DNA of 64,000 nucleotides from Proteromonas lacertae. Its lineage: Eukaryota. Shown piece by piece: positions 9,327 through 61,112 of this stretch. How positions within the stretch are numbered: position 1 is the stretch's first letter; each line of letters begins with the position of its first letter. The position numbers and the translations under genes are program-made. The notes under the pieces were generated by a model that did no database searches, was not told the DNA's origin, and worked only from the letters and a program-made list of their open reading frames with translations. The stretch is taken from positions 62,001 through 126,000 of the forward strand of contig NGBS01000017.1 of NCBI GenBank assembly GCA_002245135.1, in the 5' to 3' direction.

Positions 9327-12300
9327 ATGTACCTTGATAGAACCAGATTAACCTCTTTGGATGTTTTCTTATCAATGAATTTATCAGAATCGTTAATGTC
9401 AGAAGAAATATCATTTTTGTAATAATTTGGATTATCTAATCTCCTTAATATGCTTATCCTGTGAAATATGTGAAGATAAAGCAGTTTGGTATAATAAAAT
9501 GTACCCATTATTTCAAATATAAGTGTATAATCTGTGAAACCAATAGTACGATATACATCTGTTTTGGAGATGAAGAAATTTCTTCATTATATCCAACAAG
9601 TAAATCTAAATTGAATGACAAAATAAAATCGAAAGTACCAACAAGTATAATAAAAGAATATTGATATAATAACTAGAATTATTAAACGAATCTAACAAAT
9701 TTGATATAAAATATGTAAAAGAAATAAATCAAGATAATAAACGAATAATATTCAGTGGATATTCTTATGGTGGAAGTATTGCTCAATTACAAACAATAAA
9801 ATATCTTACATCTTATAATAATAATAATAATGATAATAATGTTTACTGTATAACATTTGGTTTAATTGATTCTATAAATAAATCAAATGAATTGAAGAAA
9901 TATATAAAAGAATATAATAATAATAATAACATTGATATTGATTTAGTATTTGTAAACATAATGAATGAAAATGATCCATTATCTTTAATCAATAATATTT
10001 ACTATAAATGTATTATATATAAATATAATATTGTTATATTTTTATGTGTTATATATAATAGGGAAAAGTAATTTATTACATATAATGTCTTCTCCAAATT
10101 CATTTTTGCAATTAATTGATTATTATATGAATTTTGAGATAAATAAAATAGAAGAAGAAGATGATGAAGAAAAAGATAAAGATTTTAGCAGGATTGGATT
10201 AACCTATGTTGTATATTGATATTAATATATTGATATATAGTTTAATAATGATGGAACAGTAGAAAAATATAATGATATAAAAGAATATAGAGAATATATA
10301 AACGAAAAAGTATTGAAGTCAGATATATCTCATTATATATTGATTCAAAATCATTCTGTTAATATCTACTATTCAAATTTAATGAAATATGAAATGGATA
10401 ATACACTACCAACAAATGAACTAAATGCATACTCAATTTTTCATTTACCAATTAACACCCAATTGATAATGAATATAAAAGAAAAATATCTATCAAAATG
10501 TATAAATTATTTCATTTATAACCAATTGGATAACAAGAAAAACCAAATCATTTACATTCTAACCAAAAAATACTTATCATTCTTTCAAAATTCTACTTCT
10601 TCATTTTATATTGAAGCTGATAACACTATTCATAGTAATAAAGAAGCAGTTAATTTCTTTTATTCACAATTGTATCTACCGAACATATATATTGATAATC
10701 CTACTGTGAAAAGTGTTATAGAATTAGAATCAACATTAATTAAACCAATCAAAGATTATTTGAATAGTATAAATGGTGAAGATCATTCAAAGTTGATGAT
10801 ATATTACATTATAACTAAACCCCATTTAACATATGGTTATATAGAGAGAATAATTAATGATTATAATTTAAAAGATAAACCATTTATAGATTATATGGAT
10901 GAATATATACATTTTTCATATAAAGATAAGAGTTACATTCCTTCAACAAAAACTATGAATTCTTCATTACTTCGTCAATATTTATTTTGGATTGAAATAT
11001 TATTTGGATATGTTTTAAATGATAATAGTCTATTCAGCACACATTGAAATTGCTAGTGATAGAAAAATGCGAATATTTCTGTTATTAGTTTGCTATGGAT
11101 ATGAATTGAAATTGAATCACAGTGTTTCTCAATCTTTTTATGATAATGATTATAAATCTGCTCTTTTTCCATCTTCATTTATAGGTTTATCTTGTATTTA
11201 TACATATAATATATTATTTTATTATAGTAAGTGAATGTCTCAACAAATCAGATACAATGATAAAGGAAATAATAAAAATCATTAATCATTTGTTATACAA
11301 CAATACATCTTCTATTGATATTTACAATTTATATTCTAATATTCTCACTGCAATAAAAGAAAGTATAAAAGTTCTATTTAAAGGAGATAAATTCTTCTAT
11401 AAAAACATACAAAAGTATTTGAATATAAAATATGAGAATGAGAGTGATTTTTATGAATTTATAAGTTATAAACACTTAACTGAATTTCCATTATATTCAT
11501 CATTCTTAGTTAAGTAACAATAATAATAGTAATAATAAATTAGATTTGAATGTATTTAAATCCTTAACAGATGAACAAATCAGTGTATTTATGCTATGTA
11601 ATCATTTGTCATTGAATGGTATATATTTATTTCTTAATGATTATATGATTAATATTGATGATTTACATAAAGTATCTAAAGAAAATTTAGTATGGTACTG
11701 CGTATTTGTCATACCAAAACAACGAAAAAAATAAGTGAAAAAGGAAATGGATTATTACTACAATTTCCATTCAATATATTGAAAAGGTTAAATAGTGATG
11801 TAAATATTTCATATTTATTAAATGATGATGATTATATGATTCTAAGTGGAAGATTAACTGAATATTTTCAAAGATGTAACAATGATAATAATGATCAGAT
11901 ATTAGAAGAAATAGATCCAATTATAGTAAATAGTAATAATAAGAAGAGTAATTTGCATAGTTGTAATTGTAAATATAAAATTGATAGTATTGCAGAAGGA
12001 GTTATAAATTATATTTCTACATCACATGTTACTTATGAATATAAAGTATATTACAACAATGAAGAATGGTGTTTATATAAAAGATATAACAGTTTTTATG
12101 TATTACTCTTTATTTATTTATTTGAATAGTATTTTCATGAACAGTTGAAAAATGAAAATCCAACAATTGAACTTCCAGAATTACCTCACTGTAGTTTTAC
12201 TCGTTCATTTTCGGATGATTATATTAATGCAATGGGAACTGAATTGTTTAGATATATAACGTCACTTATAATAATGATAAATGAAAATGATAATAAAACT

Positions 12301-13253
12301 AAAGATAAACAGTTGTATAGAAATCCAATAGAATTATTTGATACAATAACTGTATTTTTACATGGTTGGAGTTTTTTGAATAATAAAATCAGATCAATAA
12401 ATGATTATTCTAATCAAATGGAGTTGATAACAGTTGATAGTAAAATTAATCCCAATATTTTTAATGAAATAATATATTTACAGGAAGAGAAATGTGTGTT
12501 ATGTGGAAAAGACATTAAGTCATTCTTCTTCATCTCTTAATTCTAATACTTCTTCTATATCTAATTCTGTAAATTATTGTTATTATACAAATTTGTATTA
12601 TTGTTTTGATTGTATAAGTAAAGAAAAGATGATAATTCCAAGTTATGTATTATGTAATTGGAATTTTGAAAGATGCACTGTGTGTTTACCTGTTTATGAG
12701 TATATAAAATCAATTTATAGTAAACCAATAATCAATATATCAATGATTGATCCACAAGTCTTATTTTCAGAACAATTAGATCCAATATTTAATGAATTGA
12801 AGAAATACAGAAGAAGTTTAGGATTATTATTTAGAGTTATTTCAACCTGTGATGAAGGCTTAGCAATGGCCAAAGAATTAAAAATTCCTGAACATCTGAA
12901 AGTGGAAGATGATAATTATTCTTTAGAAGATATAGAGAAAATATCAAATTCTAATAAATTGAAAAAAGATATGAAATATTATAAAAGAGAGATATTTCAT
13001 CATATAAAGAATTGTGATAATTGTAGAATGAAGATAAACATTTGTTCAATTTGTAAGAATAAAGAATCTATCATATTTGGATATGAAGATGATAATTATG
13101 CTAATAATAAGTGTGTGGAATGTAAAAGATGTAAAGACATATATCATAAAGAATGTTTTGATAAAAGTGAATGGAAATTGTGTTAATTGTGGTTATTGTA
13201 ATAGAAATATTAATGAAAATAGTGTTATTAAACATGAAATACATTATGATTAA
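9327..13253 (+). CDS. Class-3 lipase + PX domain + Rubicon-homology (PLEKHM/DEF8-type Zn) domain protein; several apparent single-base frameshifts
   Basis: FSGYSYGGS (9751-9777), NENDP and QNHSVNIY give a Ser-Asp-His triad. PX-like YEYKV...WCLYKRYNSF...LPELP. RH-like CxxC, YCYYTNLYYCFDC, IIPSYVLCNWNF, HIKNCDNC, CKRCKDIYHKEC. Confidence 0.7.
9408..9457 (+). other. Candidate U12-type intron (AT-AT 50 nt, or AT-AA to 9466)
   Basis: ATATCATTTT at 9408, TCCTTAAT at 9442-9449, phase-0 join to the ORF at 9458/9467. Confidence 0.6.
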
Positions 13254-13370
13254 GTTAAATGTGTTTTATTTATATATCTCTTTTTTGTAATTGTTGATTT
13301 ATAAAAAAAAAGAATTAATGAAACATTTGATTAAAATAATACAACACTCTAAAAATACATATAAAGATCA

Positions 13371-14225
13371 TTATTCTGGTGGAGTTGGAAACATTTGTGG
13401 AAACTTTTCTTGCATTTGTTCGGGATTTAATCTGCCACTCAACTGTTTCTTCAATTCAATTTTTCCAAGTTCTTTTGATAGATTTCTTCTATTCTCTTCA
13501 ATAGATGGAGCGATATTTTCTGGTGGTAGAAATCCTTTATCTTCAAGTTCATCACGACTATGACTTACAATCAGATAGAATTAAATAGAAACTATTTTAT
13601 ATATTTATTATATTTTAAAATGATATGATTACTTAAGCTTCTTGATAGACTGTCTCTCTTCATTTCTTTTTCTAGTTTCTTCATGTTTTCTTGGATAGCT
13701 GGACTTACTGTTGAATTGATTAAACCTTTTTGTTCAACTTCTTCAATACTTGGACGACTTCCTAAACTTCTTTTCAACTATATATCAGTATATGTTAAAA
13801 ACTATATACTGATGATCTTTTCATATTCATATCAAGTTCACAAGCTAGTTGACGTAAAGCTGGAGCAATCTGAGCTTCTATTTTTATTACATATTCTAAA
13901 TTTTTATACCTTTCACAATACCTTGTGCTTCTAATTCATCTATGCTTGATCTGTTCTTCAATTGATTTGACACCTATAATATTCTATCAATTAATCTTAT
14001 ACAGCTGCACTTTTTAAATTGGTCTCTAAAGCCTTAGCATTCGCTGCAATCGCTGGTGATACACTAGAATCTAAATATAAAACAACATAAAATACTTTGT
14101 ATAACTCCTGATCGTTGTAATGATTCAATTTCACTTCTATTACTAAGAGACTTCTCCAATTCTACTGATTTTTCTCTGATCTATATAAGCTTATAAAATA
14201 TAGCTTTAAATACCATCGTAGTCAT
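13371..14225 (-). CDS. Small RPEL-repeat (G-actin-binding-like) protein, 5 repeats
   Basis: The spliced product has repeats LSNRSEIESL, LKNRSSIDEL, LGSRPSIEEV, LSNRHSRDEL, LSGRLNPEQM with vSPaI...LE linkers. Five GT-AG introns plus one AT-AA intron. Confidence 0.8.
13565..13626 (-). other. AT-AA (U12-type) intron, 62 nt
   Basis: ATATCATTTT...TTCTATTTAAT...TGTAA. Removal creates C|GT (Arg) of the RPEL repeat. Confidence 0.72.
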
Positions 14226-14613
14226 ATGTTCTTAGAACTAACGACACAGTTACAAACTATTATGCAAATCGATTCTATTTATATAGTAATTTTCATAATA
14301 AATTTATTCAGAAAATCTATTCTTCTTCGTTTTTATAGCGAAAAAGAATTAATGTTAATAACATTAGATGAACATCATGACATATTTAAACGATTTTCGT
14401 ATGATACAAGTGATATAGAATTTATACATGTTTTTTGCGAAGTTATAGATATGTCATTCAGTATTCAATATATGCAAGTGAGATTTTTATTGACATAATA
14501 AAGTATAAAAGACTATATATGATGAAGAAAAACAAAAAAATATAAAACATCAAAACGAATATATTTTTGAATTTAAATTTCATTTTTTTTGTAACAGTAA
14601 ATATAAATATATA

Positions 14614-15493
14614 ATGTCTGAACTTCCAGCAAGAAAGAAATTATTGGAAAAGCAGCAACAGCAACAGCAAGATTATAGTCAGGAAGAAGAACCCATACAA
14701 AAAGATGCTTGGAAGAACTTTGATGAAAGTTCTGAAGCTGGGAGATTGTTAAGAAAATTATATGGATCAAGAACAAAACCGCAAATAAACTATCCAGCTG
14801 TAAAATTGTCATTTTAACTTAAATAAATTAGGTTAAAACAAAGAAAACTACTGAAAATCGACGTGCATTTGTAATAGGAGGAGGAAAACCAGATGAAGAT
14901 CCTCGTGAAAAGAGATTACTAGATGCTAAAGTAAACGTTCCAAAATTCTATCATAAAAGTGAATATAAATTTTACCCAATTGATTTTGTTCAAAGAAAAC
15001 GATTATTAGCAGACATAAAAAGAGAATGGAAAGAAATTGAAAGAGATAGAGATATATACAGACCACCAATGACAAAAGAAGTAGCTAGCAGTATATATAT
15101 ATCAGTAATTTAGTTAATTATTCAATAGAAGCTGAAATAGAAAGATTACAATTAGAGTATCAATTTAAAGGAGGAAAAGCCTTACCTGAGTGTATAGCCT
15201 ATCCAGCATTTGAAGGTGATTTACAGCAGAAATTCATGGAAATATCAGAAAGGAAGAAAGTATTAGCTAAACCTATAGGCGATCCTGACAAATTAACGAA
15301 AGAAGAATATAATATACTATTTGATGAAATAATGACGGAAATAGATGAACGACAGAAGTATTTAGTGCAAATGATGGATTTGGGCAATAGAAACCTTCAA
15401 GTTGAGAGAAGAATAAAATCTGAGATAGATGATAGAATAACTGATCTGGAAAGGTTGGATCAGATATTAGAATCTGTTGAAAGTAATGAATAG
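14614..15493 (+). CDS. UPF0193/EVG1-like conserved protein
   Basis: Two GT-AG introns join the ORFs. The C-terminus LFDEIMTEIDERQKYLVQMMDLG...IKSEIDDRITDLERLD resembles UPF0193. Confidence 0.6.
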
Positions 15494-15601
15494 ATAATTT
15501 AATCGTTTATTTAGTTTTTTTTATGTTTTTTTGAAAATTGGTGTATGAAAAGAATTACGTAATTGTTGAAGTAAATTACATCATTTTTTTTTATAAATTC
15601 A

Positions 15602-16680: not shown

Positions 16681-16911
16681 ATAATTAATAGTTTCATTGT
16701 ATCTGTATTGATTTTTTGTTATAAATTATGTATATTTTGCCATCCAATTTACCATATAGCAATTGTAATTGCATTATATACACTGTATGCTATAAAATAT
16801 GAAATTTTATGAAAAAGACGTTTTTTTAATTCAAAAAATAGACCGTTTCATAAAAAAACGTTTATTATAATCTGAAGTATATATCAGTCATATCATTATT
16901 TTATAGTTACC

Positions 16912-18700: not shown

Positions 18701-21700
18701 CTATTTAATATTGAAGAATTCTTCTGATAATTCTTTCTTTTCTTCTTCTGGCATTCCATCTATTTTTATTATTCTAATTGATGAAAATGTTTCTAAAAAT
18801 GATCTTAATTCTGATTTATCTATGTTCTCTTTAATTGTTATTGATAACTCTTCTAAACAATCAAAAACATCTTCATTTTCTTCCATCAATCTCAATTCTC
18901 TTTCATCTAATTCATTTCCTTTCAAATCTATCTTTTTAAATGGATTATTATAATCTTTTAATCTTTCAATTAACATTTTCAATCCTCTGTCACTTATTTT
19001 AATACTTGATAAATTTAATGATACAGGGTTACTGTAAACATTAATTATAATAAATTTATCTAAATTACTACATATTATTTCTATCCCTTCATCTCCAATT
19101 GGATTATTAAATATGGAGATATATTTAACATTTTTTGAAATAGAATCAGTTAATTCTTTTAATCCTTTAGAAGTGATTTTGTTGTTGGATAAATTTAGTT
19201 CCGAATAGTTTATCTGTTTTATTAATGAAATATAAGAATCATTCAAATTTAAATCTATTTCATTATATAATAACATGATATACTTGAAAAATCATAATTG
19301 TTAAAAAGAAAATGTTTTTTCTTTTTTATACAATAATCTAAACAATATTCCAATTCTTCATTTGTCCAGGATGAATTTTTCATTTCTATAAATGGATATT
19401 CTTCTTTTTCTAATGACTTTGAACAAATTGATTTTAACACATTAAAACTTATATTATTTCCATTTAGATTTATTATGTTACATCCTCTAATTGAATCTAA
19501 TGCATTTGTTAATAATACTTCACTTTCATCATCTATTGATGTATTAATCAAGTTTATTTCCTTTGTATGTATATCAATAAACATGCGTAAATTATTTTCC
19601 AACAATTTTAATCCATTATTTCCAATTGGATTATCTATTAAACAAAAATAAAAATATTTATAATAAATAAATATATACTGTAAATCAATAATCTCTCAAT
19701 GTTATTATTCTTTTCCATATAATTCATCAAATATTCTATTCCAACTGAATCTATATTATTATCACTTATATCAAGCAATCTTATCTTTTTTATAATTCTC
19801 TTTAAACCATCAACTAAATATTTCAATCCAACTGACGTTAATCCCATTTCTATAGTATATAAAATAATGATAATACTTGAACATTCGATTGTATAGTCAT
19901 TATGATTATAGTACTTAATCATTAGCAAATGCAGAACATTAGAAAATAATTTCATTCCTTTATCTCCTATCAAATTTTCTTTAATATGAAGATATTGAAG
20001 ATTTGGAAATGAATATAAATTATTTATAAGTATTTCTATGCTTTTATGTGTAAGTCTGTTATCTAAATGTTAGAAAAATATCTAATTATACTTCTTAAAT
20101 CTAAACATTCAATCTTTCTCATTTCTCTGAATTCGTTTGATCTTAATGAAATGAATGATTTGAAAAAATCATCATCAATATCTAAATTATTGAGATGTAT
20201 TATATTATTCCAATCTTTTATGTATTTTATTAATACTGGAATATCTTTATCGATCAATAATTCTTTACATTCATTAAAAGTAAATTCTACTTTTGAAATA
20301 GGAAATTTGGAGAATAAAGCTTTTAATCCTTTTGAATGAATATTATTGTTATATTTTATATCTATTTTGGTTAGTTGACGGTACTTATATAACTCTTTTG
20401 ATAATAATATCATTGATTCGTCATTTAACCTTTTTCCACAAAACCTCAATTGTTTATTCTTATCAATTAATAAATGTATATATGGGAGTAATAATTTGAA
20501 GTATTTTGAATCAATATGTTTAGCTATATCAAAATAATATTCAATCATAATAATATTAAATACATTCAAGATTTACACATTTTAATTTCATGAATGGAAT
20601 TGATTTAACAAATGAGCTAACAAAATATGAAGTAACAGAGAGTTCTGATAAATCAACATCTTGCAAGTTGTTTAATTGGGAAAATAATGATCCAAATAAC
20701 GATTCACATTGGGGTTGAATATTAATTATATAAGAACCATGAACTATAAAAATAATATCGATTATAAATATACCAAATATGAGTTTTGTTGGATTGATTA
20801 ATTTCAATATTCTGAATAAATAATTCAATCCTTTTTCACAGAAACAAATATATTCTGAATTAATCTTGATTATATCATCTTTATCATCATAAATGCCAAA
20901 TATTATTGTATCTAAATAACATTCTCTTCTTTCTTTACATTTGTGATGAATTTGAAATTTCAATTTATCATGAATTGATTCATCTTTTTTGTATATTTTC
21001 ATCATCAATAATATTGATAGAATTCTTTCACTTGGTTTAGTATTGTAGGATTTTATAAAACCATCTCGAATTTCTTCCCATTTATCACTTTCAAGATAAT
21101 AAGCTGACGGATATAATATTGAAAATGTAACTATATTTTTATCACTGTTATGTAACATTTCTTTTCTTTCTTCACATATCATTACATTATCTTCCTCATC
21201 TTTTATCATTTCACTCATTTTTATCATTTCTTTCTTCAACTCTTTTAAACTCAATCTATCTTCATCTTTCACTTTTAACATTCTGTCAATTATTTCTTTC
21301 ATTTTCTCATCTTTGATTATATCTTTATTATATTCACATTTTAACATATTTATTATTGGATGCTTCTGTGATCCATTCACATAAAATGGTAATTCATGTG
21401 TCAGTAACTCATATAATATGCAACCAATTGACCAAACGCAACTATTTTTCATTTATATCACTTTCAATACACATCAATTGTCCAACATTCATAAAACATT
21501 ATATCATTGATACTCACATCCTTGTTTGTTAACTAATGTGTTTACGTATAAATCACATATCCTTAAATTATCATATATCCCATCATTACATTCATACACT
21601 ATATTAGAGCTCTTCAAATAACCAACCAATATATTAAATTCACTCAATATCATCAATACATTGCATATTGATGTTATTACTCTGCAAATATCATTTTTTG

Positions 21701-22278
21701 ATAATACTTTATTGTGAATCAACTCTTCTAAATCTATAAAGTAATAATCTCGTGATATTCTTATATATTCATTATTTCTATTCAATTGTAGTACTTTGGA
21801 AGGATAGACCCATGAAATACAATAATCTGATAATATTGAGTTATTCTCTAAGAACTCTGATACTGTATTTTCCTTTATACCCGAAATATTAATAATTTTC
21901 ACAATTTCATTACTATTTTGATGTTGTACTACCAAATCTATTTCACTATCATTTTTTATTTTTCTTTCTTTTATCTATTACGATAAAATTAACTACAATA
22001 CCGTATAAAATGGTAAAATTGATGACACTATATCTTTGTTGAAAGATTTTAAAAAACTGCTCATTTCTTCTCCATATTTAGTCTAAATATGTAAAATAGT
22101 AATATACTTCAGCAGTGTATGGTGATAATGAAGAAAATACTTCATCTATGAAAGATCCTTCATTATTATTTCTTTCATCTCCTTGCTTTACTCTACAAAA
22201 TAAGTAAAAAAGTACTTGAGTATTGCATGGTAATATTGAAGATAATACATAATCCACAAAATCATTTAAGAAATTCAT
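18701..22278 (-). CDS. Pseudokinase-LRR protein, copy 2
   Basis: VGYLKSSN/CDLY/WSIGCILYEL kinase fold. LRR exons homologous to copy 1, with near-identical patches (19081-19260 vs 4921-5100). Three +1 homopolymer indels at ~21446-21520. Confidence 0.78.
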
Positions 22279-38083: not shown

Positions 38084-39518
38084 ATGAATTGTATTCATTA
38101 TTGTAATGCTTTAAAATAGTTTTATCCAAACAAATGCTGATAGTTGTAGCTAGTGGAACAGTCGTAATTGGTTTAGGAACGTATTTTTTTAATTCTATTA
38201 CTAGCCTATTATATCGTAATTACAACAAATCAAGAAAGGAAAATTTTGGATTAAATCTATCTAAAGGAAGAAAGTATTTAAGGGAAGTATATTTTATAAA
38301 AATTACAGTTTAGGGGAATTATGAAGAAGCAATTCAGTATTTAAAGAATAGTCTAAAGTATGCATATAATGGTGAACAAAAATATTTTACCAATTATTTT
38401 GTTGGCAGTTGTTATGTAGAAATTGTATAACATTTACATCATTGAATGATTAATCATAGAAACAATATAATGAAGCAATTCTGTTCTTCAAATCTTCATT
38501 AAAATATACCTCAACTATACAACAGAAATATGAAATAAATGACAATATTGGAAGATGTTATGTTGAAATGGTATTGAATAATAATAATTCTTATATTTTA
38601 TAGAAAGAATATCAAAATGCAATTCCCTATTTCAAATGTTGTTTAGAATGTTCTGTGATCAATATACAAAAGTGTATAGATAATTACAATATAGGAATGT
38701 GTTATTTTGATATGGTATTATTGTTATTATTAATAATTTCTAGAAACAATACAATGAAGCAATTCCATTCTTTGAATCTTCTCTAGACTATTCTCCATTA
38801 AATAGAAGCAAAATATATTTATATATTGGACTATGTTACTCTGGAATTGTATAAATTTATATTATTATTTATAATAATAAGAATAAATGCAAAGAAGCGA
38901 TTTTATCCTTTAAAAAGTCTTTAGAATATTCATCAACAAAAGCTGAGAAATACAAAATATGTAATTATGCTGGTGTTAGTTTGACTATGATAGTAAGTCA
39001 TAAACAGTTATTATTTTATAGAATGAATATAAAGAAACAGCAAATTTTTATAAAATTGCTTTAGAAAATACATCAAAAGATTCAGAAAAATATAATGTAA
39101 ATTATCTTTTAGGTTTTTCATATTTTGGAGCAGTATAAAATACTTTTATTATCTTTATGAATAGAAAGAATATGAAGAAGCGATTCATTATTTTAATCAA
39201 TCAATTAATAATTCAGTGATTGAAAAGGGTAATACTGCATCATATTCATTTATTGCTGAATGTTATTTAAATTTAAACAACAAAGAGAAGTGTTTGGAAT
39301 ATTTGAATAAATCAAAAGAATATTCTAAAACAGATAATTCAAATTATTACTTATATAAAGTATTTGGAGAATATTATATAGAAAATGTATTTTTTTAATA
39401 CTGATTTAATTCAATAGAATGAAAATAAAAAGCTAGAGAAATGTTAGAAAAAGCTTTGCAATTAGTTCCTGGTGATGCAGACAAAGAAGAAATACAGAAT
39501 ATGATAGATAACATCTAA
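38084..39518 (+). CDS. N-terminally membrane-anchored TPR-repeat protein A (one repeat per exon)
   Basis: MNFLSKQMLIVVASGTVVIGLG TM segment. Phase-0 exons 38314-38424, 38460-38570, 38604-38714, 38744-38848, 38882-38992, 39022-39132, 39165-39386, each KxYxEAIxxFxxSLxY...IGxCY. The last exon needs one extra A at ~39430. Confidence 0.85.
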
Positions 39519-39650
39519 ATTTTATATACTAAATCCTTTATTTATTGATTATATGGTGTTTATTTCAATAATTTATGAATAGAGATTTGATATAGTTTGT
39601 TCAAAAAGAAATTTCAAGCCAAACTTATTAGAGATCTTTATTCATCGATT

Positions 39651-41373
39651 ATGCCTTGTATTGAATGTTATTATACTTTGTACTAGTACCAAGCAAAGAA
39701 ATAATGATAGCTGTAGCAGGTGGTGCAGTAGTTTTTTATTACAGTCTGTATTACTTTTTGTATAAGTAAATAGGGTTATGTACAGAAAATATAAATTCAA
39801 TTCAAGTTATAAAGCTGCTCATGGTTATTTTAGTAATGTATACTTTGTATTATGATGTGTAGGGAAAATTCAATGAAGCAATTCCGTTACTTAGATCTGC
39901 ATTACAGTATGCATCATCAAACGAAGATAAATACAATTCAAGTGTAGGACTTGGATTGTCTCTTTCCAATATCGTATTATTTATTTAAATAATTGTTAAT
40001 TATAAACTTATAGGGAAAATACGATGAAGGAATTATAGTCTTAAAATGTACATTAGAGTATGCAACAACAAACGATAAAAAATATGAAGTAAATACTATT
40101 ATTGCTAAACGTTTTATTGAAATGGTATATCTTTCTTTCTTTTCAATAATAATTATAATTTTTTATAGAGAAATTTCAATGAAGCAATAAAGTGGTTTAA
40201 ATTAGCCTTAGAATTTGCACAAACAAATAATAAGAAGCGTATGATAATGATAATATTAGTGTTTGCTATTTACAATTATCAAACTATAAAGAAGCTATAC
40301 CTTTCTTAAAATCAGCAGTAGAATACTGCTCAGCAGATGAAGATAAATATGAATCAATGAAAGACTTAACTTATTGTTATTTAAAAACTGTACAAATATT
40401 TCGAATTAAAATAATATAATTTATAATAATATATAACAAATAGAAACAATACAATGATGCTATGGAAGTATATCAATCTGTTTTGAAATATGCAACAACA
40501 AATGAAAAGAAATATCAACTAAATACAATGGTTGGTGAATGTTATTTTGAATTGGTATATTCTATAATAATAATAATAATAGAAAAAATGCAATGAAGCT
40601 GTTCTTTTATTTAAATCAAACTTAGATTATATCTCCACAAATAATGAAAGATTTCAAACAAATAAAAATATTGGAATGTGTTGTTGGGAATTAGTATAAT
40701 AATAATTATAATTATTGTTATTGTATTATATAGGGTAATTACAAAGAAGGTATAACATACTTGAAGACTGCAATAAAATATGCATCAACAAATAAAGACA
40801 AATTCATTATCAATCATGGTATTGCTAAAAGTTTAACTAGGATTGTATAAGATGAAATATTATATAATATTATTAGGGAGAACATAAAGAAGCAATTAGT
40901 TTCTATAAAGCTGTAATAGAAAGTGTACAATGTGAAGAAGAAAAGAAGGTTATGTATTTTGCTATAGGTTGTTTATATATGAAGATTGTATAAGTAAAAA
41001 TTATAATAATGAATAGAAAGAAAGTGATAAAGCTATTAACTATTTAAACAAATCATATAGTTCAGAAGAAGTTGAAAGAGGTAATACTTCTTGCTTTTCT
41101 TTAACTGCTGAATGTTATTTATACAAAGGTGATAAACAGAAATGTTTAGAATATTTGAATAAAGCAAAAGAAAATTCTAGAACTGATTTATCTAATTATT
41201 ATTTATATAAAATATTTGGAGAATACTACTTAGAGATTGTATAAATATTTAGTATTTATACTATGTTATAGAAAGATAAAGAGAAAGCTAGAGAAATGTT
41301 AGAAAAAGCCTTAGTCTATACATCCTATCCTCCATTTAAAGAAGAAATACAGAATATTTTTAATAGAATTTAA
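39651..41373 (+). CDS. N-terminally membrane-anchored TPR-repeat protein B (tandem paralog, absent from ORF track)
   Basis: MPLPSKEIMIAVAGGAVVFYYSLVMYRKYK. Exons 39863-39973, 40014-40124, 40169-40389 (221 nt, one base short), 40444-40554, 40583-40693, 40734-40844, 40877-40987, 41017-41238, 41272-41373. Confidence 0.85.
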
Positions 41374-41406
41374 GTTATTTAAATGAAAGAGAGTGTGGAG
41401 AATTTG

Positions 41407-44153
41407 CTGGGTTCGATAAAGGGCGTCCTTTTCGAATTTTGCCCTATTTTTGCCCCTTTTTTTTCAGCTGAAAAGAAGCCTGCCCCTTACTGCTCGGGCA
41501 TAGTAATATTACCATGTGTTATGCTGTAGTATATTTTTTCTGATTTTTTGTTATAACTTTTCCATATTATCATCTAGATATACTAACATATGTTAAAAAG
41601 GATATATTATTGTGTATTATAGCATAATAGTCATCTACTTTTCTTATGATTATATAATATCATATGTTTATGCATATATACTAATTATATAGAATATACA
41701 TACTGTATATCATATTCTGATATGCATATATATACATTATGTACATTTCAAGGTGATTGACGTCACTGAACATAAATGAAATTTATATAATAAATAATTT
41801 TGTATATTACACATATATCATATAGATAATTAAGAAGTATAGCTATAGAATGGGTATTTTCAGTTAATTGATAATCAATAGTACTTGTTATGATAATAAC
41901 ATAATATATTTCATAAACTAATAGAAAAACTATTTCAAAATTACTATTTAGTATATTTTGCATACTACTTAATGTATTTCAAGCAATTATTTGAATATTT
42001 AGAAAATGGTTTGAGAATTTCGAGCTATCATTTTGCATTTCAATTGTATATGGGTAAAACGAGAGATGCTGTGTATAGATACTTTAATGAAGATGTGGTG
42101 TTAAAGAAACCCCTTGAAAAATACAACAGAATTCAATGCAGAAGGTGCAAGGCAATGATTATTGCTCATTGCACTAATTTGAAACGTCATTACAAAAAGT
42201 ATAAATATATTTATTATATTTATTAAATTAGATGTAGTGAAAAGCTAATCCAATCAAAACTTACAGAATTGAGATATGATGAACGTGCAATAAACTTAAT
42301 GGTGACCAAATATCTTATAGAAAATAACTTAGCTTTCAGAACCATACAATCTAAATCCTTTAAAAATCTAATATATGCATTAAATCCAACTACAAAGTCA
42401 ATAACAATAAACAAAATAAAAGCATCAATGAACGAAGAAGCAGAAAGAATAGTAAAGGAAATTGTAGATAACAGTAAAATATGTATAATTGTGGACTCTT
42501 GGAAATCAGTAACCAATGAAAACGTTATTAATTTGGCAATAAAGAAAAGCAGTGATATTTCGTTTTTGGAATCCATTTATTTACATAAACGAGAAACATC
42601 AGAAAATATAGTGGAATTAATAATTCAAACATTAGTGAAGTATAAACTAGATATTAAAAACATTGTTGCTGTGAGTAGTGATAACAACTACACCATGAAA
42701 AAGATAAGTAGTATTTTAGAGAAAAAAATAAATAGACCTGTAGTAAAGTTTGGATGTTTAGCACACATCCTAAACTTAATCAGTAAAAAAGTATTCGAAA
42801 TAGAGAAATACAAAAAAGTGATAATCATGTGTAATGACATTATTCATAAGTTAAATAATAATCAAAAGATTAGAGAAATTATATATTCAATTATACAAAA
42901 AAATATCCAAATACGCAAGGGATGTGATACGAGATGGTCAAGCTATAGCGATGTATTTAGAAAAATATTACTCAATAAAGAAATTTTATTACAGATAAAA
43001 TTATTAAAGGAAGAAGATATACCAGAAATTAAAGAATGCTACAAGATTGCAAAATATATTTCCACAAATATACACTTATTATGCAAAGATTCATCTACAT
43101 TAAATGATGGTTTCAGAATATTGACCAAAATTAAAAGAAAGTTAATGAAAAGGTCATCAAGTGAAAAAGAACTTATTAAAGACATTATAAAAAAAGAGAC
43201 TAGACATGCAAACTACAGCATTTTAGCTCTATATGAATTTTTAGACATAAACAGTAAACATAAATTTTCAGACATGGAGAAGGATAATATAAAAAGATAT
43301 ATATTATCTAAATTCAGCCCTATTTTAAATCAGAAAGCATTAAATGAGATATATCATTTTGAAAGAAGAAAACCATACTCCAAAAAGTGCCCTTCAGATA
43401 TATTTTCGAAAAAGATATCAACTAATATATGGTACAATATGTATGGAGTTTTTTACCCAAATGTTAAGAAGCTATATGATATTCTTTCAACTATTCCTGT
43501 CACAAGCTCATTTATTGAACGTTCATTTAGTATTGAGGGAATAGTTCATAATCATATTAGAAATAAATTACAGCTTAATACTATAAATAATATTTTAAGA
43601 ATAAAATATGATTTATTAAAAGAAAAAAACAAAGAAAAAGATAGAAATGAAGATGATAATGATATTAGTGAAGAAGAATATAATTTAGATGTGCTGAATG
43701 AAATTGATAACAATATAGTATATGACACTTTAGATTATCAATGTTCTGGTGATGAAGATGAAAGTTCTGGTAGTTCTAGCGATGAAGGTTTAAGTGATGA
43801 AAATTCTAGTGATGAAGATAAAAGTTCTAGTGATGAAAATGAAAGTTCTAGTGATGAAGGTTTTAGTGATGAAGGATCTCAAAGCCCTTACTTTTAAGGC
43901 TATTATTATAATGAAATATTATTGTTTGTTATTGTTATAAGATAATAATACATAATTATGAAAAGAATAAATATTTTTATAGCGTTTAATATCCCTAAAA
44001 TCGCACAAAATATAAAAATTCAAATAAAATAATTGAAAAGGGCAAATTGTACCCTTTTCTATTTTTAGATAGTATAAAGGACGCCCCTTTCAATTTTTGC
44101 CCGGGACATGCCCTTGTCCCGCCACTGCCCTGTCCCTTTATTATTCAACCCAG
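41407..44153 (+). mobile_element. hAT-superfamily DNA transposon, full length (2747 bp)
   Basis: Imperfect TIRs CTGGGTTcgATA.../...TATtcAACCCAG. 8-bp TSD AGAATTTG at 41399-41406 and 44154-44161. Subterminal GCCC motifs and inverted GGGCGTCCTT (41421-41430)/AAGGACGCCC (44077-44086). Confidence 0.95.
42050..43897 (+). CDS. hAT transposase with BED finger
   Basis: ATG 42050. Intron 42199-42231 completes the BED finger CRRC...LKRHYKKC. Catalytic VDSW, SSDN, IERSFS plus CLAH and TRWSS. Acidic 18-nt-repeat tail. Confidence 0.93.
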
Positions 44154-45291: not shown

Positions 45292-45345
<54 letters not shown>

Positions 45346-49100: not shown

Positions 49101-50297
49101 TTTATTATTATTATTGTTATTTTAGTGGAGTTTTAAACAAATATTAGATCCATTCTTCATAAAACAAACGAAATCTAAGAATGAAGAGCAAAATATAGAG
49201 AAAGTGGAATATGAAGATAAATTAATGAGATATCAACAATTATTCAATGCTATCCATCCAAAAGTATCTCCCAAATTATATGAACAATCAACAATCGAAT
49301 GTGAAAGTGTAACAACAACATTATTATATGCTCCTTATACTCCAGAGTTATATGTATATATTATTATTATTATGAATATAAATAGGTTGCTTTAGATGAT
49401 AATCGAATCAGTATAATCAATTACAACAATCGAATAACATTATCAAAATTTCCATCTCTTTGTCCCGAAGGTATAAAAATCACATCATTGTTATGGATTA
49501 ATATTCATCAAGATCCTCTGTTATTAGTTGGTTCAGCTGATGGAATAATTCGAATCTGGAAAACAATGGATAGAAAATGTAAATTGATTTCTCCTGAATT
49601 TAAAAGTGGTTTTACTGGTTTACCATTATTATCATTACAAAAGAGTTATAATGGAATTGGTTTAATATGTAAATATGATAAAATCAATACAAATTTATAT
49701 GTGAGTGGAAGTCAAAACAATATTCGAGTTTGGAATTTAGAGAAAGAAATGTGTAGTTCAATAATCGAAGGAAATAATGAAAATAAATCATTAGTAAGTT
49801 GTTTAGATGCTTGTAACAATATAGTAATAAGTGGAGATGATAGTGGAGGTGTTAGAGTGTATGATATTCGATGTAGTAACAATGAATATATATTACGAAA
49901 TGAGATAAAAGATAGTTGTAACTGGATAGTTCGAGTAAATTTATGTGAAGATAAAAAAGAATTTTTGAATGTTTCAATGACAGGTGAAATTAATTATTAT
50001 GATTTAAGTACAATGAAGTGTATTTCTACAATCAAAGCCTATGATGATGAGATTCTAACAGCTTGTGATATTCATCCAACATATCCATTAATAGCAACAG
50101 GTAGTAAATCAGGTCAATTAAATATCTATAATGTAGATACAAAAGAATTATTATGTTCTTATACTTCTCATAGTGGAATGTTTAGTCGTAGTTTTAGTGC
50201 AATTAATTCTATGAGTTTTCATGGTGGTTTGTGTAATTTAGCAGTGAGTAGTGTTGATTCAATCGTCTCTCATTTTAGTCCTTCAGAAACTATGTAA
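46150..50297 (+). CDS. RPTOR: Raptor/KOG1, TORC1 subunit
   Basis: RNC domain [60 protein letters not shown], then HEAT repeats and C-terminal WD40. All junctions reconstructed in frame. Confidence 0.95.
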
Positions 50298-51459
50298 TAG
50301 ATAATAATAATTATAAATATTATAAATATATTTGTGTTATGTGTTTTATTAACAAATTAATGCCATTTCATTTCAGGTTAAAAATATGATGGATATATAT
50401 TAAGATTGTATTGTATATATTAGTTAATAAGTATAAATATAGTGTTTAAATGATTTCTGTGTATGTAAATAAAAAAATTCCATAAATGAAACGACTAAAT
50501 ATTTTGAAATGTTGCATTTGATAGATAAAGTGTTATATGCTAAATTAGCATGTGATATGAAAGTATTTGAATTGATTTATTTTAATTAGGAGAAAGAGAG
50601 AATAGAGAGAAGTGTTAATGAGATAGATTTAGTTGTAGAATATGAGAATGGTATTCAAAAGTTGAAAGTGTTTAATGTATGTGAAATGAAAGAGAAGAGA
50701 ATATTAAAATTGTTAGAGAATAACTGTTTGTTGTTAGATTATTGTTCCTCCTTCATTTGTCGATATAGAATGTATGATATGAATGATTATGGTGAATATA
50801 TGATATATGAGAGAGAATATTACAGTAGAGACTTGAAAGAGATAATTCCTAAAAACTGCTTATGTGTGAATGATATATGTGATATAATAAGTTCAGTATG
50901 TGATGATGTAATGTTATTGAGTGAAAATGATGTAATGATTGGTAATTTGAAGAGTTCTAACATAATATATGAAGAAGATAGTGAAATAAAGATATGTGAT
51001 TTATTCTTGAATGAAATAAGAAAAGAAGAAGATATGAGAATATATGATATGAATTTCACAAGCCCAGAAGAGTTGAATGGATTAGAATATGATGAAGGAA
51101 GTGTGATTTGGTCAATTGGGTGTATATTTTATGAAATGATGTTTAAGAAATTACCATTTAATGAAGATGATAATATGAATAAAACCAAAGAGAATATCCT
51201 GAGATGTAAATATATTTTAGATGTAGAATGTTGAAAGTGAAGAATGAAGATAGAATGAGTTTAAAAGAGTTGAGAAAAGAAATAATGAAAATGAGTGAAA
51301 TATTGAGAGATAAAGGTGATAATATGATGATATGTGAAGAAAGAAAAGAGATGTTATATAATAATGATATTGTAATTATAAAATTTCCAATAACATATCC
51401 ATTAGAGCTGTATTATAAAAGTGAAAAAAGAAAAGTGATTAGAGATAAATTGATAGAAT
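49290..51459. repeat. Inverted segmental duplication, right arm (pairs with 6826-9035)
   Basis: Direct sequence comparison. Confidence 0.9.
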
Positions 51460-52823
51460 ATTATAATAAGCCAAATGAGAGAATACTTGCTATATTATTG
51501 ATTATGAAAATGTACAAAAATGGTTATTCAATTATAGAAAAAATGAAATTTCAAATTAATCACAAATGTAAAAGAGATAAAGAAAGAATACAGTTTAGAT
51601 TATATTATTTTTAAGAATATTCACAGTGATTGTGAAGATAAAGAAATAATTGTAATTAGTTCATACTGTAGATGTAAATGTGAAGTAGGTCTGAATTACT
51701 TGTTCAAAATATTGAAATTTATCGACCCAAGAAAACTGGCATATGGTATAATTGTAATGACTTTTTAGATAATATTGAAGATGAAGATGAAACATTATTT
51801 GGATTATGTGTTTCTGAATTATCAAATGTAGAAGAATTATATTTACATGGTAGTAATATTAATTGTGACTTCGTTGAATCATTAATCAGTTGCAATCGAT
51901 TCACAAAATTGAAGTATTTAGATATTGGATGTAACGAAGTCATCCAAAAGGGTTCAGATTATTACTTCCATATTTACATTTATTAATCAACAGAGATAAT
52001 GAATTGGATCTATTTGGAATGAATTTAGATGATCAATCAATGATATTATTATCAAAAGAGTTATACAAATATCCAAACCTTAAGAAAATAGATATTAGAT
52101 TCAACTGGAATATTCACTCAATTGGATTAAAAACCTTATTCTCCAAATTCCTTATTTCGCAAATCGAATTTGATTTTAATGGATGTAAAGATTTAATTTT
52201 GAATAAAAACATTCCTAACTTGTTTAAATTCCCTCCATATTATGTTTCAGATTTGATGAATTTAAAGATGTAACAGAATTAAATTTAAGAAGTATAATAT
52301 AGTTTTTTTATATTGTTTAGATAATAAACTAACATCTAAAAGTATAGAAATACTGATTAAGAATCTGTCTTCATTTTCAAATTTTAGAATACTTCATTTG
52401 AATGGAAATGAAATAGGAGATGAAGGAATGAAATTGTTAGCTCCATATTTGCATTTACTAAAATATCATGATATAATAAAGTGTTCAAGTATATTTATTA
52501 ATGATAATTTAAATGTAATAGAAATGGGATTATCTTCAATTGGATTAAAATATTTATTGGATGGTATAAAGAAAATAAGCGGAATAGACATGCTTGACAT
52601 AAGTGATAACAATATAGATTTCGAAGGAATAGAACATTTGAATAATTATATGAAAGAAAATGATAATATAAAAAAGCTAATCATGAATAGTAGTATATTT
52701 ATATTTAGTATTAAATTAATAGAAAAACCAGATGGTGATGTAGTGTTTAATGAAGAAGTAAGAGAAGAAAAGAAAGAGATTAAACAGGAATATAGAATAA
52801 AATCGTGTTGTACAATATTTTAG
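50509..52823 (+). pseudogene. Pseudokinase-LRR copy 3, frameshifted, shorter LRR region ending in CaaX-like CCTIF
   Basis: Kinase part nearly identical to copy 1 but with a 34-bp deletion at 51221-51231. Further frameshifts at ~51585, ~51940 and ~52250. Confidence 0.75.
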
Positions 52824-52868
52824 CTATTATTATTGTGTTGTATTGTATTTTGTGTATGATTTCTTATA

Positions 52869-53024: not shown

Positions 53025-53474
53025 TTCTTTATATTCTTTCAGCACATTATTCAATATTGGTATAAATATATAATCTATAGAGTAAAGTATTATAACAATG
53101 TGGTATTAGAAATGAATAATCTATATTGAAGAAAACAGTTTACTATTTCTAGAATGTTTTTATCAATCAATAGTTTTATTCATTATACGTTCTTTCACTA
53201 TATTGGTGTATCTTATTCATTCTACTCACTCACTATACAAAATTTAGTTGAAATTTGATTTGTAGCCTCAAAAAATAAGTAGTAAATATTACATTCTATA
53301 ATAAAATTAGTATAAATATCACTCTAATTCTTTATTGCAACTATTTATTGATTTTTATTGAAATACATAAATATACATGTATTAAGATGTATTAAATTAT
53401 TATTCTTTTAAATGAATGAAAATTGCTTCAAAGAACTCAAAACACTAAACAGTGATAAAATCAGTGTATGTATA

Positions 53475-56400: not shown

Positions 56401-57605
56401 TATTCAAAATATTACCGTTTCAATATTTAAATGTTGATTTGTTATGGTTTAATTTCATCAATAGTTTATTAAGGAATTATGATTATCAGAATAATATGAA
56501 TGAATTTGATGAAATATACAACTTAATATCTTATATCGATGATAAACAAATGAAAAGAACTGTACTTTATATGTTATGGAATGATTATTTATATCCAATA
56601 ATGAGATCTATTGTTGAAACAAAAGAAGAAAGTTCAAGTAATGCAACTACACCAACAAGTAATTATTTTTCCAACATGAATAATAGTGATAATATATTGA
56701 GATATAAAATGATAATTATTCAATACTCTATATCAACATTAACAGATATTAAAGCAACAATTGATGGTAAAGACACTGAAACAGAAGAAGAAAAAGAAGA
56801 AAAAGAAAAAGAAAAAGAGATTATTTTAACAGATCTATTTCCATCCAATAATTTCTTCAATCTTCACTTAGAAACTATCCAAAACTATATCAACAATTAT
56901 AGTAAGTCAAATATCTATTCAAATATAAGTATTGATATTCATTTGTTGTATTTCCGAATAATTCGATTACTTCTACCATCAGGTGACTTATTTCCTAATC
57001 AATGGATTGAATTGTTGGATATATTCAAATGTAAAGATATTCTATTAACACCTAATTCATTATTGAAGACAGTGTTTATAAAAGATGAGATTTATGAGAA
57101 TAATGTAAAGAATATAATAAGTTCTGAAGATGCAATAAACTTCTTAATTAAAATATTAGAAGTTCATTCAGATATTGCATATGATTTAGGATATTTGTTA
57201 AATATTGATGAAAATCAAATCAAAATAGAAACATGTCGAATTTACTATTTACATAACAATGACGATGAAGGTGAAAAAATATATAATGAAATTGATGATA
57301 AGAATAATATTAATCCTGCTTTATTCTATCTTATAAGACAAAGATTATCATTTTATATATATTTCTTAACAGAAACAAGAATGAGAGAATTAGAAATGAA
57401 AATTGATATGAAAATATTGAAATGGATTAGAAAAGCTATTCCAAAAGATTCATCCAAAATACCATCAGAACCATTACCATATACATTGAAAGATATTAGT
57501 AAACTAATCAATCTCATTATGACAAGTAGTAACAACAGTGAAAAAGTGAATTATGATGGAATTTCAATTGATGATTTAGATAAAGTATGTAGTTCATTAC
57601 TTTGA
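53475..57605 (+). CDS. RAB3GAP2: Rab3 GAP non-catalytic subunit
   Basis: DPTR...DNFGRVLLID...IWKGYRDADFGW...LVIYAPRRNSIEIF. Two upstream GT-AG introns link to ATG 53475. Confidence 0.88.
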
Positions 57606-57887
57606 TAATATTATTTGATTTATATATATATAATTGTTTGCTTATTTTGTTGTAATAGAATCAAAATCAGTAATTATTAGTTTAATAAACATTTTTAGGA
57701 GTTAAATCACAATATGGCAGAGTATTTTTATTATAATACATATAATCAATAAAGCTAAAGTGATTATGTGTTGAATAAAAATCGAAACACAATTAAATGT
57801 TTCACAGGCTTTTTCTTTTCTTTTTATTACAAGAACAGATTAACTACATGATGTATTATTATTATAAACAGCAATAAATACAACATA

Positions 57888-59542
57888 CTACATAAGAAAT
57901 TGAAATTTATTATTTTCTTTACTCATTCTCTCCAACACACTATTAATCCAGTCTTTATTCATTTCACATAAAATATTCTTCACTTTCATCATTTCATTTT
58001 TCATTTCATCATTCATACTGTCTTTCCCCATTACTATCATGATTATACCTTCCATTATTACACAAATATAACCATTTTCTACCACTTTATTATTCTTTAA
58101 TATTATCATTATTAATTCCCATAGTGCAATACAGATTTTATCATTAACATATCTACTTTTTTCAATTAACATAGGTATTAATTCTTTTATATATAATGAT
58201 GATATGCTTTTATATTCACTGAACAGAAATGATAAAGTATTTATATATAAAATTGATATATTTTCATTTTTAATCAGTCTAACATATTCTAATAATTCTT
58301 TTATTAAATCATTCTTTTCTTCTATTTATAACAATATAAATATATAATTATGTTTTTTTATACTTTCATCTAATAATGACGAGATATTCTCATAACATTT
58401 TAATGTTAATTCTAATATCTTATATTTCTCACTTACTATTGTGTGTTTTAGTAATTGTTGGATTATTTTTATATTCCATTTTATTTCACTTTTCGTACTT
58501 AAACATAAACACTTATATAATATATAAACACCTTCATATATCAAATTTTCTTCATTTTTTATATTGAACAACTTACTTAATAATGGAATAATTGAATTAA
58601 TAAAATCAATTTCGTAATTCAATATCTCAATATGATTCAATAAATATTTTATACAGAAAATACTAAATGGTTTTACATCATAATATTTGAAAAAAGACAT
58701 GTAATTGGATAATAATTGTTTGTTATATTTTTGTAATAATGAAGAAATATCTTTCAATTCAGTTGTCTATATATTTATATATTTATATATATATATATAA
58801 ATACATATAATTTTGGTAGTAAATTCTTTATATTCTCTCTTATTAAAGAATTACTCCATTTCACATTTGACCAATCATATAATGATATTAAACATAACAG
58901 TTCTACTTTTTCATTATTATTAATCCTTTCTTCTTCTTCTTCTCTCATATTAATTACATGCAATAAACATTTCCATAATATTTCATTTATTGATAATTTT
59001 ATATCATCAACTGCACTGTATTCTATATTCTATTCCAAATCATTACATTATATAAAAATAATATACTTTTAATTCATTAGATATGAATGATAAACATTCA
59101 CTTTTATCTTCTTTATTTATAACGGAATTACTGATAAAGATGGATAAGATAAGAATCGAATTGTATTTGTTCACTATAATTTCATTATTTCTTGCCTTTA
59201 TCACTTCAACTACTTTTAATATGGATAGTTTATGTGATAATTCTACTATAAAGTCATATATCTATTATAGCAAATAAATTCAAAACAATACGTATTGGTA
59301 ACTACTTTCATTCTTTCTATAACTGTGATTCGGGAGATCGACCAAACATAAACAATCAACCAACATTTTTACAACCTCATTAACAGCTTTATTACTAACA
59401 TCATTTGATATTCTCTAATCATAATTTAAATCACTAACTATACTTCTTTTACTCTGTCAATAATTGTTTTTATATTTTCATATAAATCATCATCATTCAT
59501 CTTATTTTTTTCTAATGAGCAAGCATTTTCACCTTCACACAT
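57888..59542 (-). CDS. Alpha-helical ARM/HEAT-like protein (possibly Tti2-like)
   Basis: Five GT-AG introns join the ORFs into one frame with a helical-repeat pattern. Family assignment is weak. Confidence 0.55.
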
Positions 59543-59705
59543 CGATAAATATTGAAATTTAAAAAGAATGTAAATTTGACCTAAATTACCATAGAATTAC
59601 AAAATGTAATAAAAAAGTATTATAAAAAAGTATAATGTAAGAATTTACATCAAAAATGAGAATAAACATCACAATCTACAACAAAGAAATTATAAATTTA
59701 TTAAT

Positions 59706-61112
59706 TTAATTACAATCAGAAATCAACGCTTTAGAAGAAGAATCTTCACTGCTTTCTCTTGTTAAATTCTGTCTTCTCCTCTTCCATTCAATAACAGCAA
59801 CAAAGAACAACACACTTGCAACACCAACACTACTAAACACCATTATGATGATAAAGGTGTAATTCTGAACTTTTTTATTATTTTCTTCATCTTTTGGAGG
59901 ACAGCTTATCTGACCAAAATCATTTATATCTTTTCTATAATTTTCTGATAATATTTCACCATTTACATCACGTATATAACTATAACAACTTTCATTTTTA
60001 TATAAAACTATTGCTCTCGTACCAACTACTTCACCATATCCAGAATATCCTGTTTTAGCTCCAAAACTTAGATTTATTCCATAATAATTTAAAGTGTAGT
60101 CATTTTGATGATTGTGACCTACATATACACCTAAAATATTGTTTCTAAATAAAATAAAATATAATATTTTATATACTGCTCAATCATCGCTGTTATTAAA
60201 CCAGTGTTTATTCTTGGACAACTTACTTCTTCTGTATGATTTCCACTTATATCAAATATCTAAATAAATAATTAAAATATTATTATTATTACGTTTGTTC
60301 CATAAAAAAATTCTGGTGGAGGAATATGTAAAAATGCAATTCCTTTAATTGTCTTATTATTGTTTAACTCATTCAATTCTTTACTTTTATTAACATACCA
60401 TTTTATTACATCAGGATGAACACATCCCCAAGTATTTGTTACGTTTAAACATTCATTATTCATTGAGTCAAAAAACCATAAAATCATTTCCATTTTTTCA
60501 TCTTTTTCATCATAGATTGGGATAAAATAGTAAAAAAAAAGAAATTATGGAAATTATAATGATAAATAAATATAAAATGATATATTTGTAGTTCCATGAA
60601 TACTATTTGGTCCTTTTTCAGTCATTGAATATGGATTAGTCTGATCTAACTCAATTATTTCATCTCTAGATAAATCATTCTACTTAAATAAATAAATAAT
60701 TATCTATAAATATACACCAACATCGTGATTTCCAAATATATAGGCATATGGCACTCCAACAGAAGTAACTGGTTGTGTATAGTTTTCCCAAGCAGTTTTA
60801 AAAAATCCTTCGTTTTTACTACGCTTTGTATAATCAGAAACCATGTCTCCTGTAAATACAACAAAATCTGGTTTCTCGAGCTTTAGATTTTGTAATTGAA
60901 GTCTGTTACATAATGCATCCATCTCATTATCTTCTCCATAATGAATATCAGTAATCTAAATGTATTATTATTCAAAAAATATACTTGAGTTATTTTAAAA
61001 GATCCATCATCTTTGAATTTTATATGTTGTGTGTATTTACAAGAAACATATACAATCAAAGTATATCTAAAATATATCTAAAATATTCAAATACATGAGA
61101 AAATAAAACATT
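59706..61112 (-). CDS. Calcineurin-like metallophosphoesterase (PAP29/Dcr2-like) with signal peptide and C-terminal TM
   Basis: DGSFKITQITDIHYGE, PDFVVFTGD, FGNHD, GTTNY, WFFDS, FLHIPPPE, VGHNHQND, TGYSGYG. Contains an AT-AC intron at 60530-60583. Confidence 0.9.
60530..60583 (-). other. AT-AC (U12-type) intron, 54 nt
   Basis: ATATCATTTT...TTTCCATAAT...TTTTAC. Removal deletes in-frame stops and gives GTTN|YFIPIY. Confidence 0.85.

Follow-up and report, generated by a model that had tools for sequence, protein, structure and literature searches.

Introduction

The 5′ splice site of minor (U12-type) introns ranks among the most conserved of eukaryotic signals because two small nuclear RNAs (snRNAs) read it in succession, so that a lineage-wide change of this donor would need coordinated changes. 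The published donor rule is RTATCCTT with at most one C-to-T change at +5 or +6 (PMC2846911). In Blastocystis subtype 1 (ST1), 346 of approximately 35,000 introns (about 1%) are of the minor type, and all four minor snRNAs and seven proteins have been reported (Gentekaki et al. 2017, PMC5608401; Larue & Roy 2023, PMC10639083), the snRNAs for ST7 as well. The rows listed in the ST1/ST4/ST7 intron table (PMC5608401 supplement 32) hold 336 ATATCC donors, all from ST1, three ATATCT and no ATATCA, with T at +7 in 284 of the 336. Here we describe three inserts in protein-coding genes of a 64-kb window (the whole stretch of DNA analysed, from Proteromonas lacertae contig NGBS01000017.1, positions 62,001 to 126,000), which begin with the identical 10-mer ATATCATTTT in place of the textbook U12 donor ATATCCTT and depart from the rule by an A at +6.

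Like canonical A-type U12 introns (PMC3584512, PMC11874965, PMC10639083), these inserts have an AT start, an ATATC core, a T-rich stretch from +7 to +9 and a branch that resembles TCCTTAAY to varying degrees, perfectly at one site only; only C-to-T is tolerated at +5/+6 in the canonical introns of animals and plants, and the A at +6 breaks that rule. With the minor introns of ST1 they share the A-type start, a length above the ~30 nt of major introns, mixed AN ends and, at one site, the intron position itself (OAO17926_3 corresponds to our site 3). They differ in being 50–62 nt long with the branch A 9–18 nt from the end, whereas the ST1 introns among the rows listed are mostly 37–44 nt with a branch A approximately 6–8 nt from the end. 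A hand count over 69 rows of the ST1 table gave 42 AC, 24 AG, 2 AT and 1 AA ends, so that non-AC ends there (27 of 69) are mostly AG (24 of 27 among the rows listed) while those here are AA or AT; two AA/AT ends in three have P = 0.006 under the ST1 frequencies, although one of the two ends is unfixed. In Physarum polycephalum (Larue et al., bioRxiv 10.1101/2020.10.12.336362) a minor-intron signal has changed lineage-wide, as is probably the case here, with AT-AG, AT-AA and AT-AT ends and a +6 variant, but that variant is a wobble-compatible T and the matched snRNA change lies in U12 opposite the branch site; the preprint presents this as the first case in which an snRNA and a core intron motif have coevolved. 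In our window it is the donor that has changed, by a transversion, as read from the introns.

The novelty is the A at +6, found in three of three introns here and in none of the 339 ATATC-starting Blastocystis introns among the rows listed. The sequence-only reading from which this work started had also put forward an unusually dense minor-intron system with relaxed 3′ ends; both points were overstated, as three in about 137 introns is compatible with the ~1% of ST1 (P = 0.16), and relaxed ends are already documented in ST1, in Physarum and in animals and plants, AT-AA and AT-AT being the commonest non-canonical ends in animals and known in plants also (PMC10639083). The AT-AC introns that it mentioned for Blastocystis are present in the ST1 table. 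Titles and abstract openings on Proteromonas introns and spliceosome, on ATATCATT U12 introns and on snRNA compensation held no report of a +6 A minor donor, a scope outside which lie the genome paper of Zahonova et al. 2023 and the bioRxiv supplements. Nothing on such a donor stands in passages of PMC11347168 and PMC5953543, two texts of Lind et al. contain no minor-intron passage, and Proteromonas is absent from one supplement of a pan-eukaryotic survey.

One donor at three reading-frame breaks

As first reported in the sequence-only reading, ATATCATTTT stands at 9408 (+), 13626 (−) and 60583 (−), hereafter sites 1, 2 and 3, and the coding frame of each of the three genes reaches stops shortly past its start. 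All three donors read ATATCATT, matching RTATCCTT at seven of eight positions with the A at +6 as the mismatch, and all carry T at +7 to +10. Judged by these letters they lie outside the canonical U12 5′ site rule, and we file them as a putative variant rather than as canonical members. The motif itself is not enriched: as a 9-mer it has 12 copies where 9.69 ± 3.08 are expected, a count equalled or exceeded in 26 of 100 shuffles. Three of the five 10-mer copies in the window fall at frame breaks, the other two lying antisense to a gene (21688, +) and in frame within a hAT transposase (43351, +). Simulated break points shared any 10-mer three times in 0 of 20,000 trials with 5 breaks, in about 1e-4 with 10 and in about 1e-3 with 20. 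The placement of the motif, not its abundance, goes beyond chance.

The inserts also stand apart from the local major introns. In 27 gene regions that we had outlined by visual inspection of the sequence, a self-trained gene finder predicted 134 GT/GC-AG introns, 111 starting GTAT and 117 ending TAG. Restriction to a core set (GTA start, TAG end, at most 60 nt) dropped 27 of the 134 and kept 107, with a median length of 32 nt and only 5 of at least 50 nt. The lengths of 50 (or 58–59), 62 and 54 nt at sites 1, 2 and 3 thus agree with the longer class first proposed. C at +5 occurs at three of three sites versus 0 of 107 core introns, and the major profile (GTAT donor, TAG acceptor, ~32 nt, no C at +5) fits none of the three.

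Single GT/GC-AG introns that restore the frame exist at every site (7 at site 1, 13 at site 2 and 1 at site 3), so each site needed its own test. The claim that GT-AG splicing fails to give the expected protein stands in so far as those tested at sites 2 and 3 damage conserved motifs; it does not extend to an absence of in-frame alternatives. All three introns were read from DNA alone, and the boundaries given below are candidates. On the tests that follow, the case for a U12-type intron whose donor departs from the known consensus is firm at site 3, strong at site 2 and plausible at site 1; that all three inserts are introns we regard as quite probable.

Candidates with familiar donors were also considered. 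Four copies of the canonical ATATCCTT were ruled out as minor introns, being antisense, intergenic or in frame, and the 17 sense-strand RTATCNTT sites of the gene regions included no minor intron with an ATATCC or ATATCT donor. The motif at 9224 (−) was rejected because it adjoins a duplicated Raptor fragment rather than lying within an intact gene. Separately, a 44-nt GT-AG intron at 40125–40168 (+) contains ATATCTTT from its third base, which looks like a minor donor bypassed by an upstream GT and may be chance.

Site 3 is orthologous to a curated Blastocystis intron

59703..61049, minus strand: host gene 3, calcineurin-like metallophosphoesterase (Pfam PF00149, E = 1.1e-8); 5′ start approximate
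60530..60583, minus strand: AT-AC minor intron of site 3, 54 nt, phase 0, falling at the Asn/Tyr junction of a conserved G-x-x-N-Y motif
60544..60552, minus strand: branch-like motif TTCCATAAT with its A at 60545, departing from the U12 consensus at one position

The metallophosphoesterase gene comprises four GT-AG introns in addition to the minor intron, and its product is 42–43% identical to Blastocystis orthologues, with which it shares four of four aligned intron positions. This agreement places the organism in or near the Blastocystis/Proteromonas group. We scored all 3,961 frame-keeping excisions against a profile made from those 65 of 150 representative hits that were 290–480 residues long. 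Three 54-nt registers yielding the same protein came out on top with 248.0 bits, one of them the AT-AC excision 60583–60530, while the sole GT-AG rival (102 nt) scored 208.3 bits and ranked 1,229 of 3,961.

Comparative evidence came from a metagenome scan that returned 43 loci, five of which carry an AT-AC intron at the same Asn/Tyr boundary, in the same alignment column and phase as site 3. They represent two Blastocystis lineages, one (L002, L004 and L005, at least 99.4% alike) with an ATATCC donor and the other (L003 and L006) with ATATCT. The L003/L006 intron is one base off the curated ST1 intron OAO17926_3, and the preceding L003 intron is identical to OAO17926_2 (both PMC5608401 supplement 32), in a set whose boundaries were corrected with RNA-seq (PMC5608401). 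The shared boundary and this near-match make site 3 orthologous to a curated minor intron, and site 3 is almost certainly of the minor type.

The ST1 orthologue (L003:2662–2700 and L006:847–885) is one of only three ATATCT introns among the 339 ATATC-starting rows listed; given this rare donor, the site 3 intron deviates at +6 in two lineages. Canonical ATATCC AT-AC introns were seen in neighbouring Blastocystis genes, at 4385 (−) in L002 and at 2601 (−) in L003, the latter being the published OAO17925_3. Four unnamed proteins close to the site 3 gene product (P0001, P0006, P0151 and P0152) end at its intron position, P0001 and P0006 with 74% identity, and show that public sequencing runs contain close relatives that are unannotated. 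The site 3 exons drew no matches in word-index protein searches, and none of seven exon read-through open reading frames was present in the protein collection.

Sites 2 and 1

13368..14225, minus strand: host gene 2, five-repeat RPEL protein, recognized from internal repeats and weak PDB matches
13565..13626, minus strand: candidate AT-AA minor intron of site 2, 62 nt, phase 1, splitting a conserved Arg codon of the fourth RPEL repeat
13580..13590, minus strand: weak branch-like motif TTCTATTTAAT, A at 13581, alternative at 13571

At site 2 the internal repeats serve as the standard. The PDB matches of the product, to Phactr1 (E = 0.015) and MAL/MRTF RPEL domains, are weak, and word-index protein searches with the exons gave no matches. 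The 62-nt AT-AA excision restores the Arg of repeat four and brings the Arg spacings to 44, 44, 43 and 44. Each of four GT-AG rivals tested (the nearest being 29, 35 and 92 nt) lacks this fourth Arg: the 29-nt rival (13592–13564) keeps the frame and puts 11 extra residues into the RPEL motif. Three GT-AG models were set beside the AT-AA one, and the in-frame rivals other than these delete a larger part of the motif.

9327..11050, plus strand: host gene 1, resembling class 3 lipases (Pfam PF01764, E = 1.1e-7, matched in exon 9679–10020)
9408..9457, plus strand: candidate A-type minor intron of site 1, phase 0, donor ATATCATTTT, 3′ end not fixed
9442..9449, plus strand: branch motif TCCTTAAT, perfect U12 consensus, branch A at 9448

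Site 1 is the weakest of the three. Its 3′ end may be the AT at 9457 (50 nt) or an AA at 9465 or 9466 (58 or 59 nt), all of which keep the frame. The insert contains two in-frame stops, the frame downstream offers no separate ATG ahead of the lipase domain, and exon 1 is coding by score (+14.6 log units over 27 codons). For a 30-nt stretch with the composition of local introns, the chance of a perfect branch motif is about 4e-4, and CCWTAA occurs in 0 of 107 core major introns. The GT-AG rivals call either for introns of 113–161 nt whose donors are atypical or for a 63-nt intron combined with a 7-nt exon. No homologue for the join was found by word-index protein search with the lipase exons, and the ESM Atlas leads for exon 2 were all below 0.9.

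Across the sites the branch A lies 9 (or 17–18), 16 and 15 nt from the 3′ end at sites 1, 2 and 3. Branch-like motifs are thus present at all three, as proposed, though against TCCTTRAY only that of site 1 is perfect, that of site 3 having one mismatch and that of site 2 being weak; an ST1 intron, OAO17781_10, has a degenerate branch of a similar kind (PMC5608401). The proposed ends fared likewise: the register that fits best is AT-AC at site 3 and AT-AA at site 2, both with A-type termini, and the end of site 1 stays unfixed. As for a second intron class, the inserts do look like A-type U12 introns with a variant +6, given the orthology of site 3 and the minor-spliceosome proteins kept in the group, but its relaxed ends and density had been overstated.

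A copy of the 3′ WD40 part of Raptor (989 nt, 98.6% identical) stands head to head with the lipase gene, at 8050–9040 (−) versus 49287–50270 (+), 40 kb apart and inverted. An LRR-kinase paralogue lies beside both copies, making the duplicated block approximately 3.5 kb.

A probably retained minor spliceosome and a predicted snRNA change

Published domain counts for P. lacertae include RNPC3/RBM41 (4), U11-48K-like CHHC (4), 25K (2), PDCD7 (2), CCDC84 (CENATAC; 1) and RBM48 (1), and the first of these families also occur across Blastocystis proteomes (PMC12129017 supplement 10). Two of the proteins that the earlier reader proposed to look for, U11-48K and RNPC3, are thus represented as domains in published counts, and the whole Blastocystis/Proteromonas group appears to retain minor-spliceosome proteins. 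CENATAC has been tied to AT-AN introns (PMC11874965). The terms ZCRB1, SNRNP35, SCNM1 and ARMC7 have no row among those searched in that supplement. An Rfam search of four Blastocystis loci gave no matches.

In the human system, +1 to +3 are read by U11-48K, with U11 pairing deeper in the intron (PMC3584512). The donor CC5/6 pairs with GG6/7 of U11 and GG14/15 of U6atac, and mutated donors can be rescued by compensatory suppressor snRNAs (PMC4980772). Unless the snRNA had changed, a +6 A would stand opposite a G, and drift should give the wobble-capable T; all three being A (P ~0.07 for a free +6 base) therefore favours a compensatory U. That the +6 A is the consensus of this lineage we consider likely. 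We lean, by a modest degree, towards A-type U12 introns served by a retained minor spliceosome, for which we predict that a G in U11 and/or U6atac has changed to U to compensate for the +6 A; for the compensatory base itself, in one snRNA or another, the balance is even. Extrapolating from human genetics, U11-48K would still read +1 to +3, U11 and then U6atac would pair across +5/+6, U12 would pair with the branch motif and the 3′ end would be an AN dinucleotide 9–18 nt beyond the branch A. Throughout the lineage the ancestral +6 C would have given way to A and the snRNA box would have gained the matching U, that of U6atac reading AAUGA rather than AAGGA.

We propose more tentatively that the 5′ splice site has been recoded as a whole, with hundreds to thousands of A-type ATATCATTTT introns across the genome, a matching U in both U11 and U6atac, and a 3′ end set by branch distance with little base preference. 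Such recoding, if true, would be a natural counterpart of the laboratory suppressor-snRNA experiment and would mean a whole intron class escaping RTATCC-based classifiers and GT-AG gene finders. A donor-side case would also extend motif–snRNA coevolution to U11/U6atac. Within the window, approximately 2% of introns would be mis-modelled by GT-AG gene finders, as they were by our self-trained one at sites 1 and 2.

Alternative explanations

Several observations count against minor introns with a lineage-wide +6 A and a compensating snRNA. The sample is three introns, with orthologues at one site only, from a window selected for this very feature. Across three lineages the +6 base of the orthologous site 3 intron is C, T or A, so that the position may be loose. 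Our gene finder, which was blind to the motif, settled on a non-canonical intron at site 3 under all three penalties, at site 1 only under the laxest and at site 2 never, preferring a 35-nt GT-AG intron there at every penalty. The branch motif of site 2 is weak, and an AG lies one base beyond its AA end, where a dropped G would give AT-AG. Apparent 1-nt frameshifts near 12520, 17355 and 17875, in otherwise open genes, are likely to be assembly indels. An Rfam scan of the 64-kb window returned nothing at gathering score, its four chance-level matches including none that was spliceosomal. In oomycetes, Acanthamoeba and Physarum the U6atac box reads CC and pairs poorly with the donor (PMC2396436).

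The main alternative, which we judge unlikely, is that these are U12-type introns with unchanged snRNAs, in which +6 is unpaired or tolerated, recognition comes from the T run at +7 to +10 together with protein contacts, and the A reflects drift in an A+T-rich genome. The C, T and A seen in one orthologous intron would fit, as would the oomycete CC variant, which pairs poorly with canonical donors (PMC2396436). In the human structure only four U11 nucleotides are free to pair, and branch recognition has been proposed as the driver of assembly (bioRxiv 2023.12.22.573053). The T run is also stricter here, at all of +7 to +10, than in ST1, where T stands at +7 in 284 of 336. Yet +6 in ST1 is C in 336 of 339 introns among the rows listed and never A, drift should favour the tolerated T, which occurs at none of the three sites, and with two of three branch motifs imperfect, branch pairing is no obvious compensation. 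Were the snRNAs indeed unchanged, pairing at +6 would be dispensable, with a bearing on the unexplained U6atac CC variant.

A narrower explanation, which we hold to be improbable, accepts site 3 alone as a minor intron, its +6 change being private, and takes sites 1 and 2 for GT-AG introns, pseudogene lesions or assembly errors with the motif nearby by coincidence. Copies of the motif are frequent in the window sequence, the frameshifts and the stray AG noted above would suit this explanation, and frame-keeping GT-AG models exist in the 29-nt intron of site 2 (13592–13564) and a two-intron model at site 1. The former nonetheless adds 11 residues to the RPEL motif at the loss of the Arg and uses a GTTT donor and an AAG acceptor, both rare (5 of 134 and 15 of 134), the latter has to combine a 63-nt intron with a 7-nt exon and to use AAG acceptors twice, and three breaks sharing a 10-mer would arise by chance at only ~1e-4 (10 breaks) to 1e-3 (20). 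Similarly improbable is a descent from minor introns whose removal has since passed to the major spliceosome or to a hybrid: the GTAT donor consensus (111 of 134 predicted major introns, unusually near RTATC) has +2 to +4 in common with the minor donor and U2-type AT-AC introns occur in mammals (PMC1557818), but major introns are shorter, never have C at +5 (0 of 107) and mostly end in TAG (117 of 134), none of which traits the three sites share, site 1 retains a U12 branch motif, and minor-specific proteins are kept throughout the clade.

Other features of the window

The window is intron-rich, with genome-encoded stop codons and a G+C content of 25.7%; published values are 27.0% for P. lacertae and 21.5–21.8% for tortoise Blastocystis (PMC12129017 Table 1). 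A UPF0193 gene is present, a term absent from the searched rows of the domain table of PMC12129017. The core major donors are unusually uniform, with T at +4 in 102 of 107 and G at +5 in only 4 of 107 versus the usual GTRAG, and U1 and U6 in this lineage may also be divergent.

A hAT-family element at 41400–44140 has a long transposase open reading frame (PF05699, PF04937) and G+C-rich imperfect inverted ends, and carries one host-style GT-AG intron at 42199–42231. Three paralogues combine a kinase-like N-terminus with leucine-rich repeats, as judged by eye (4538–7809, −; 18701–22064, −; 50509–52823, +), and two of them have apparent lesions. Two tandem TPR-like genes at 38134–41373 (+) have 10–11 introns each, with an intron at nearly the same place in every repeat.

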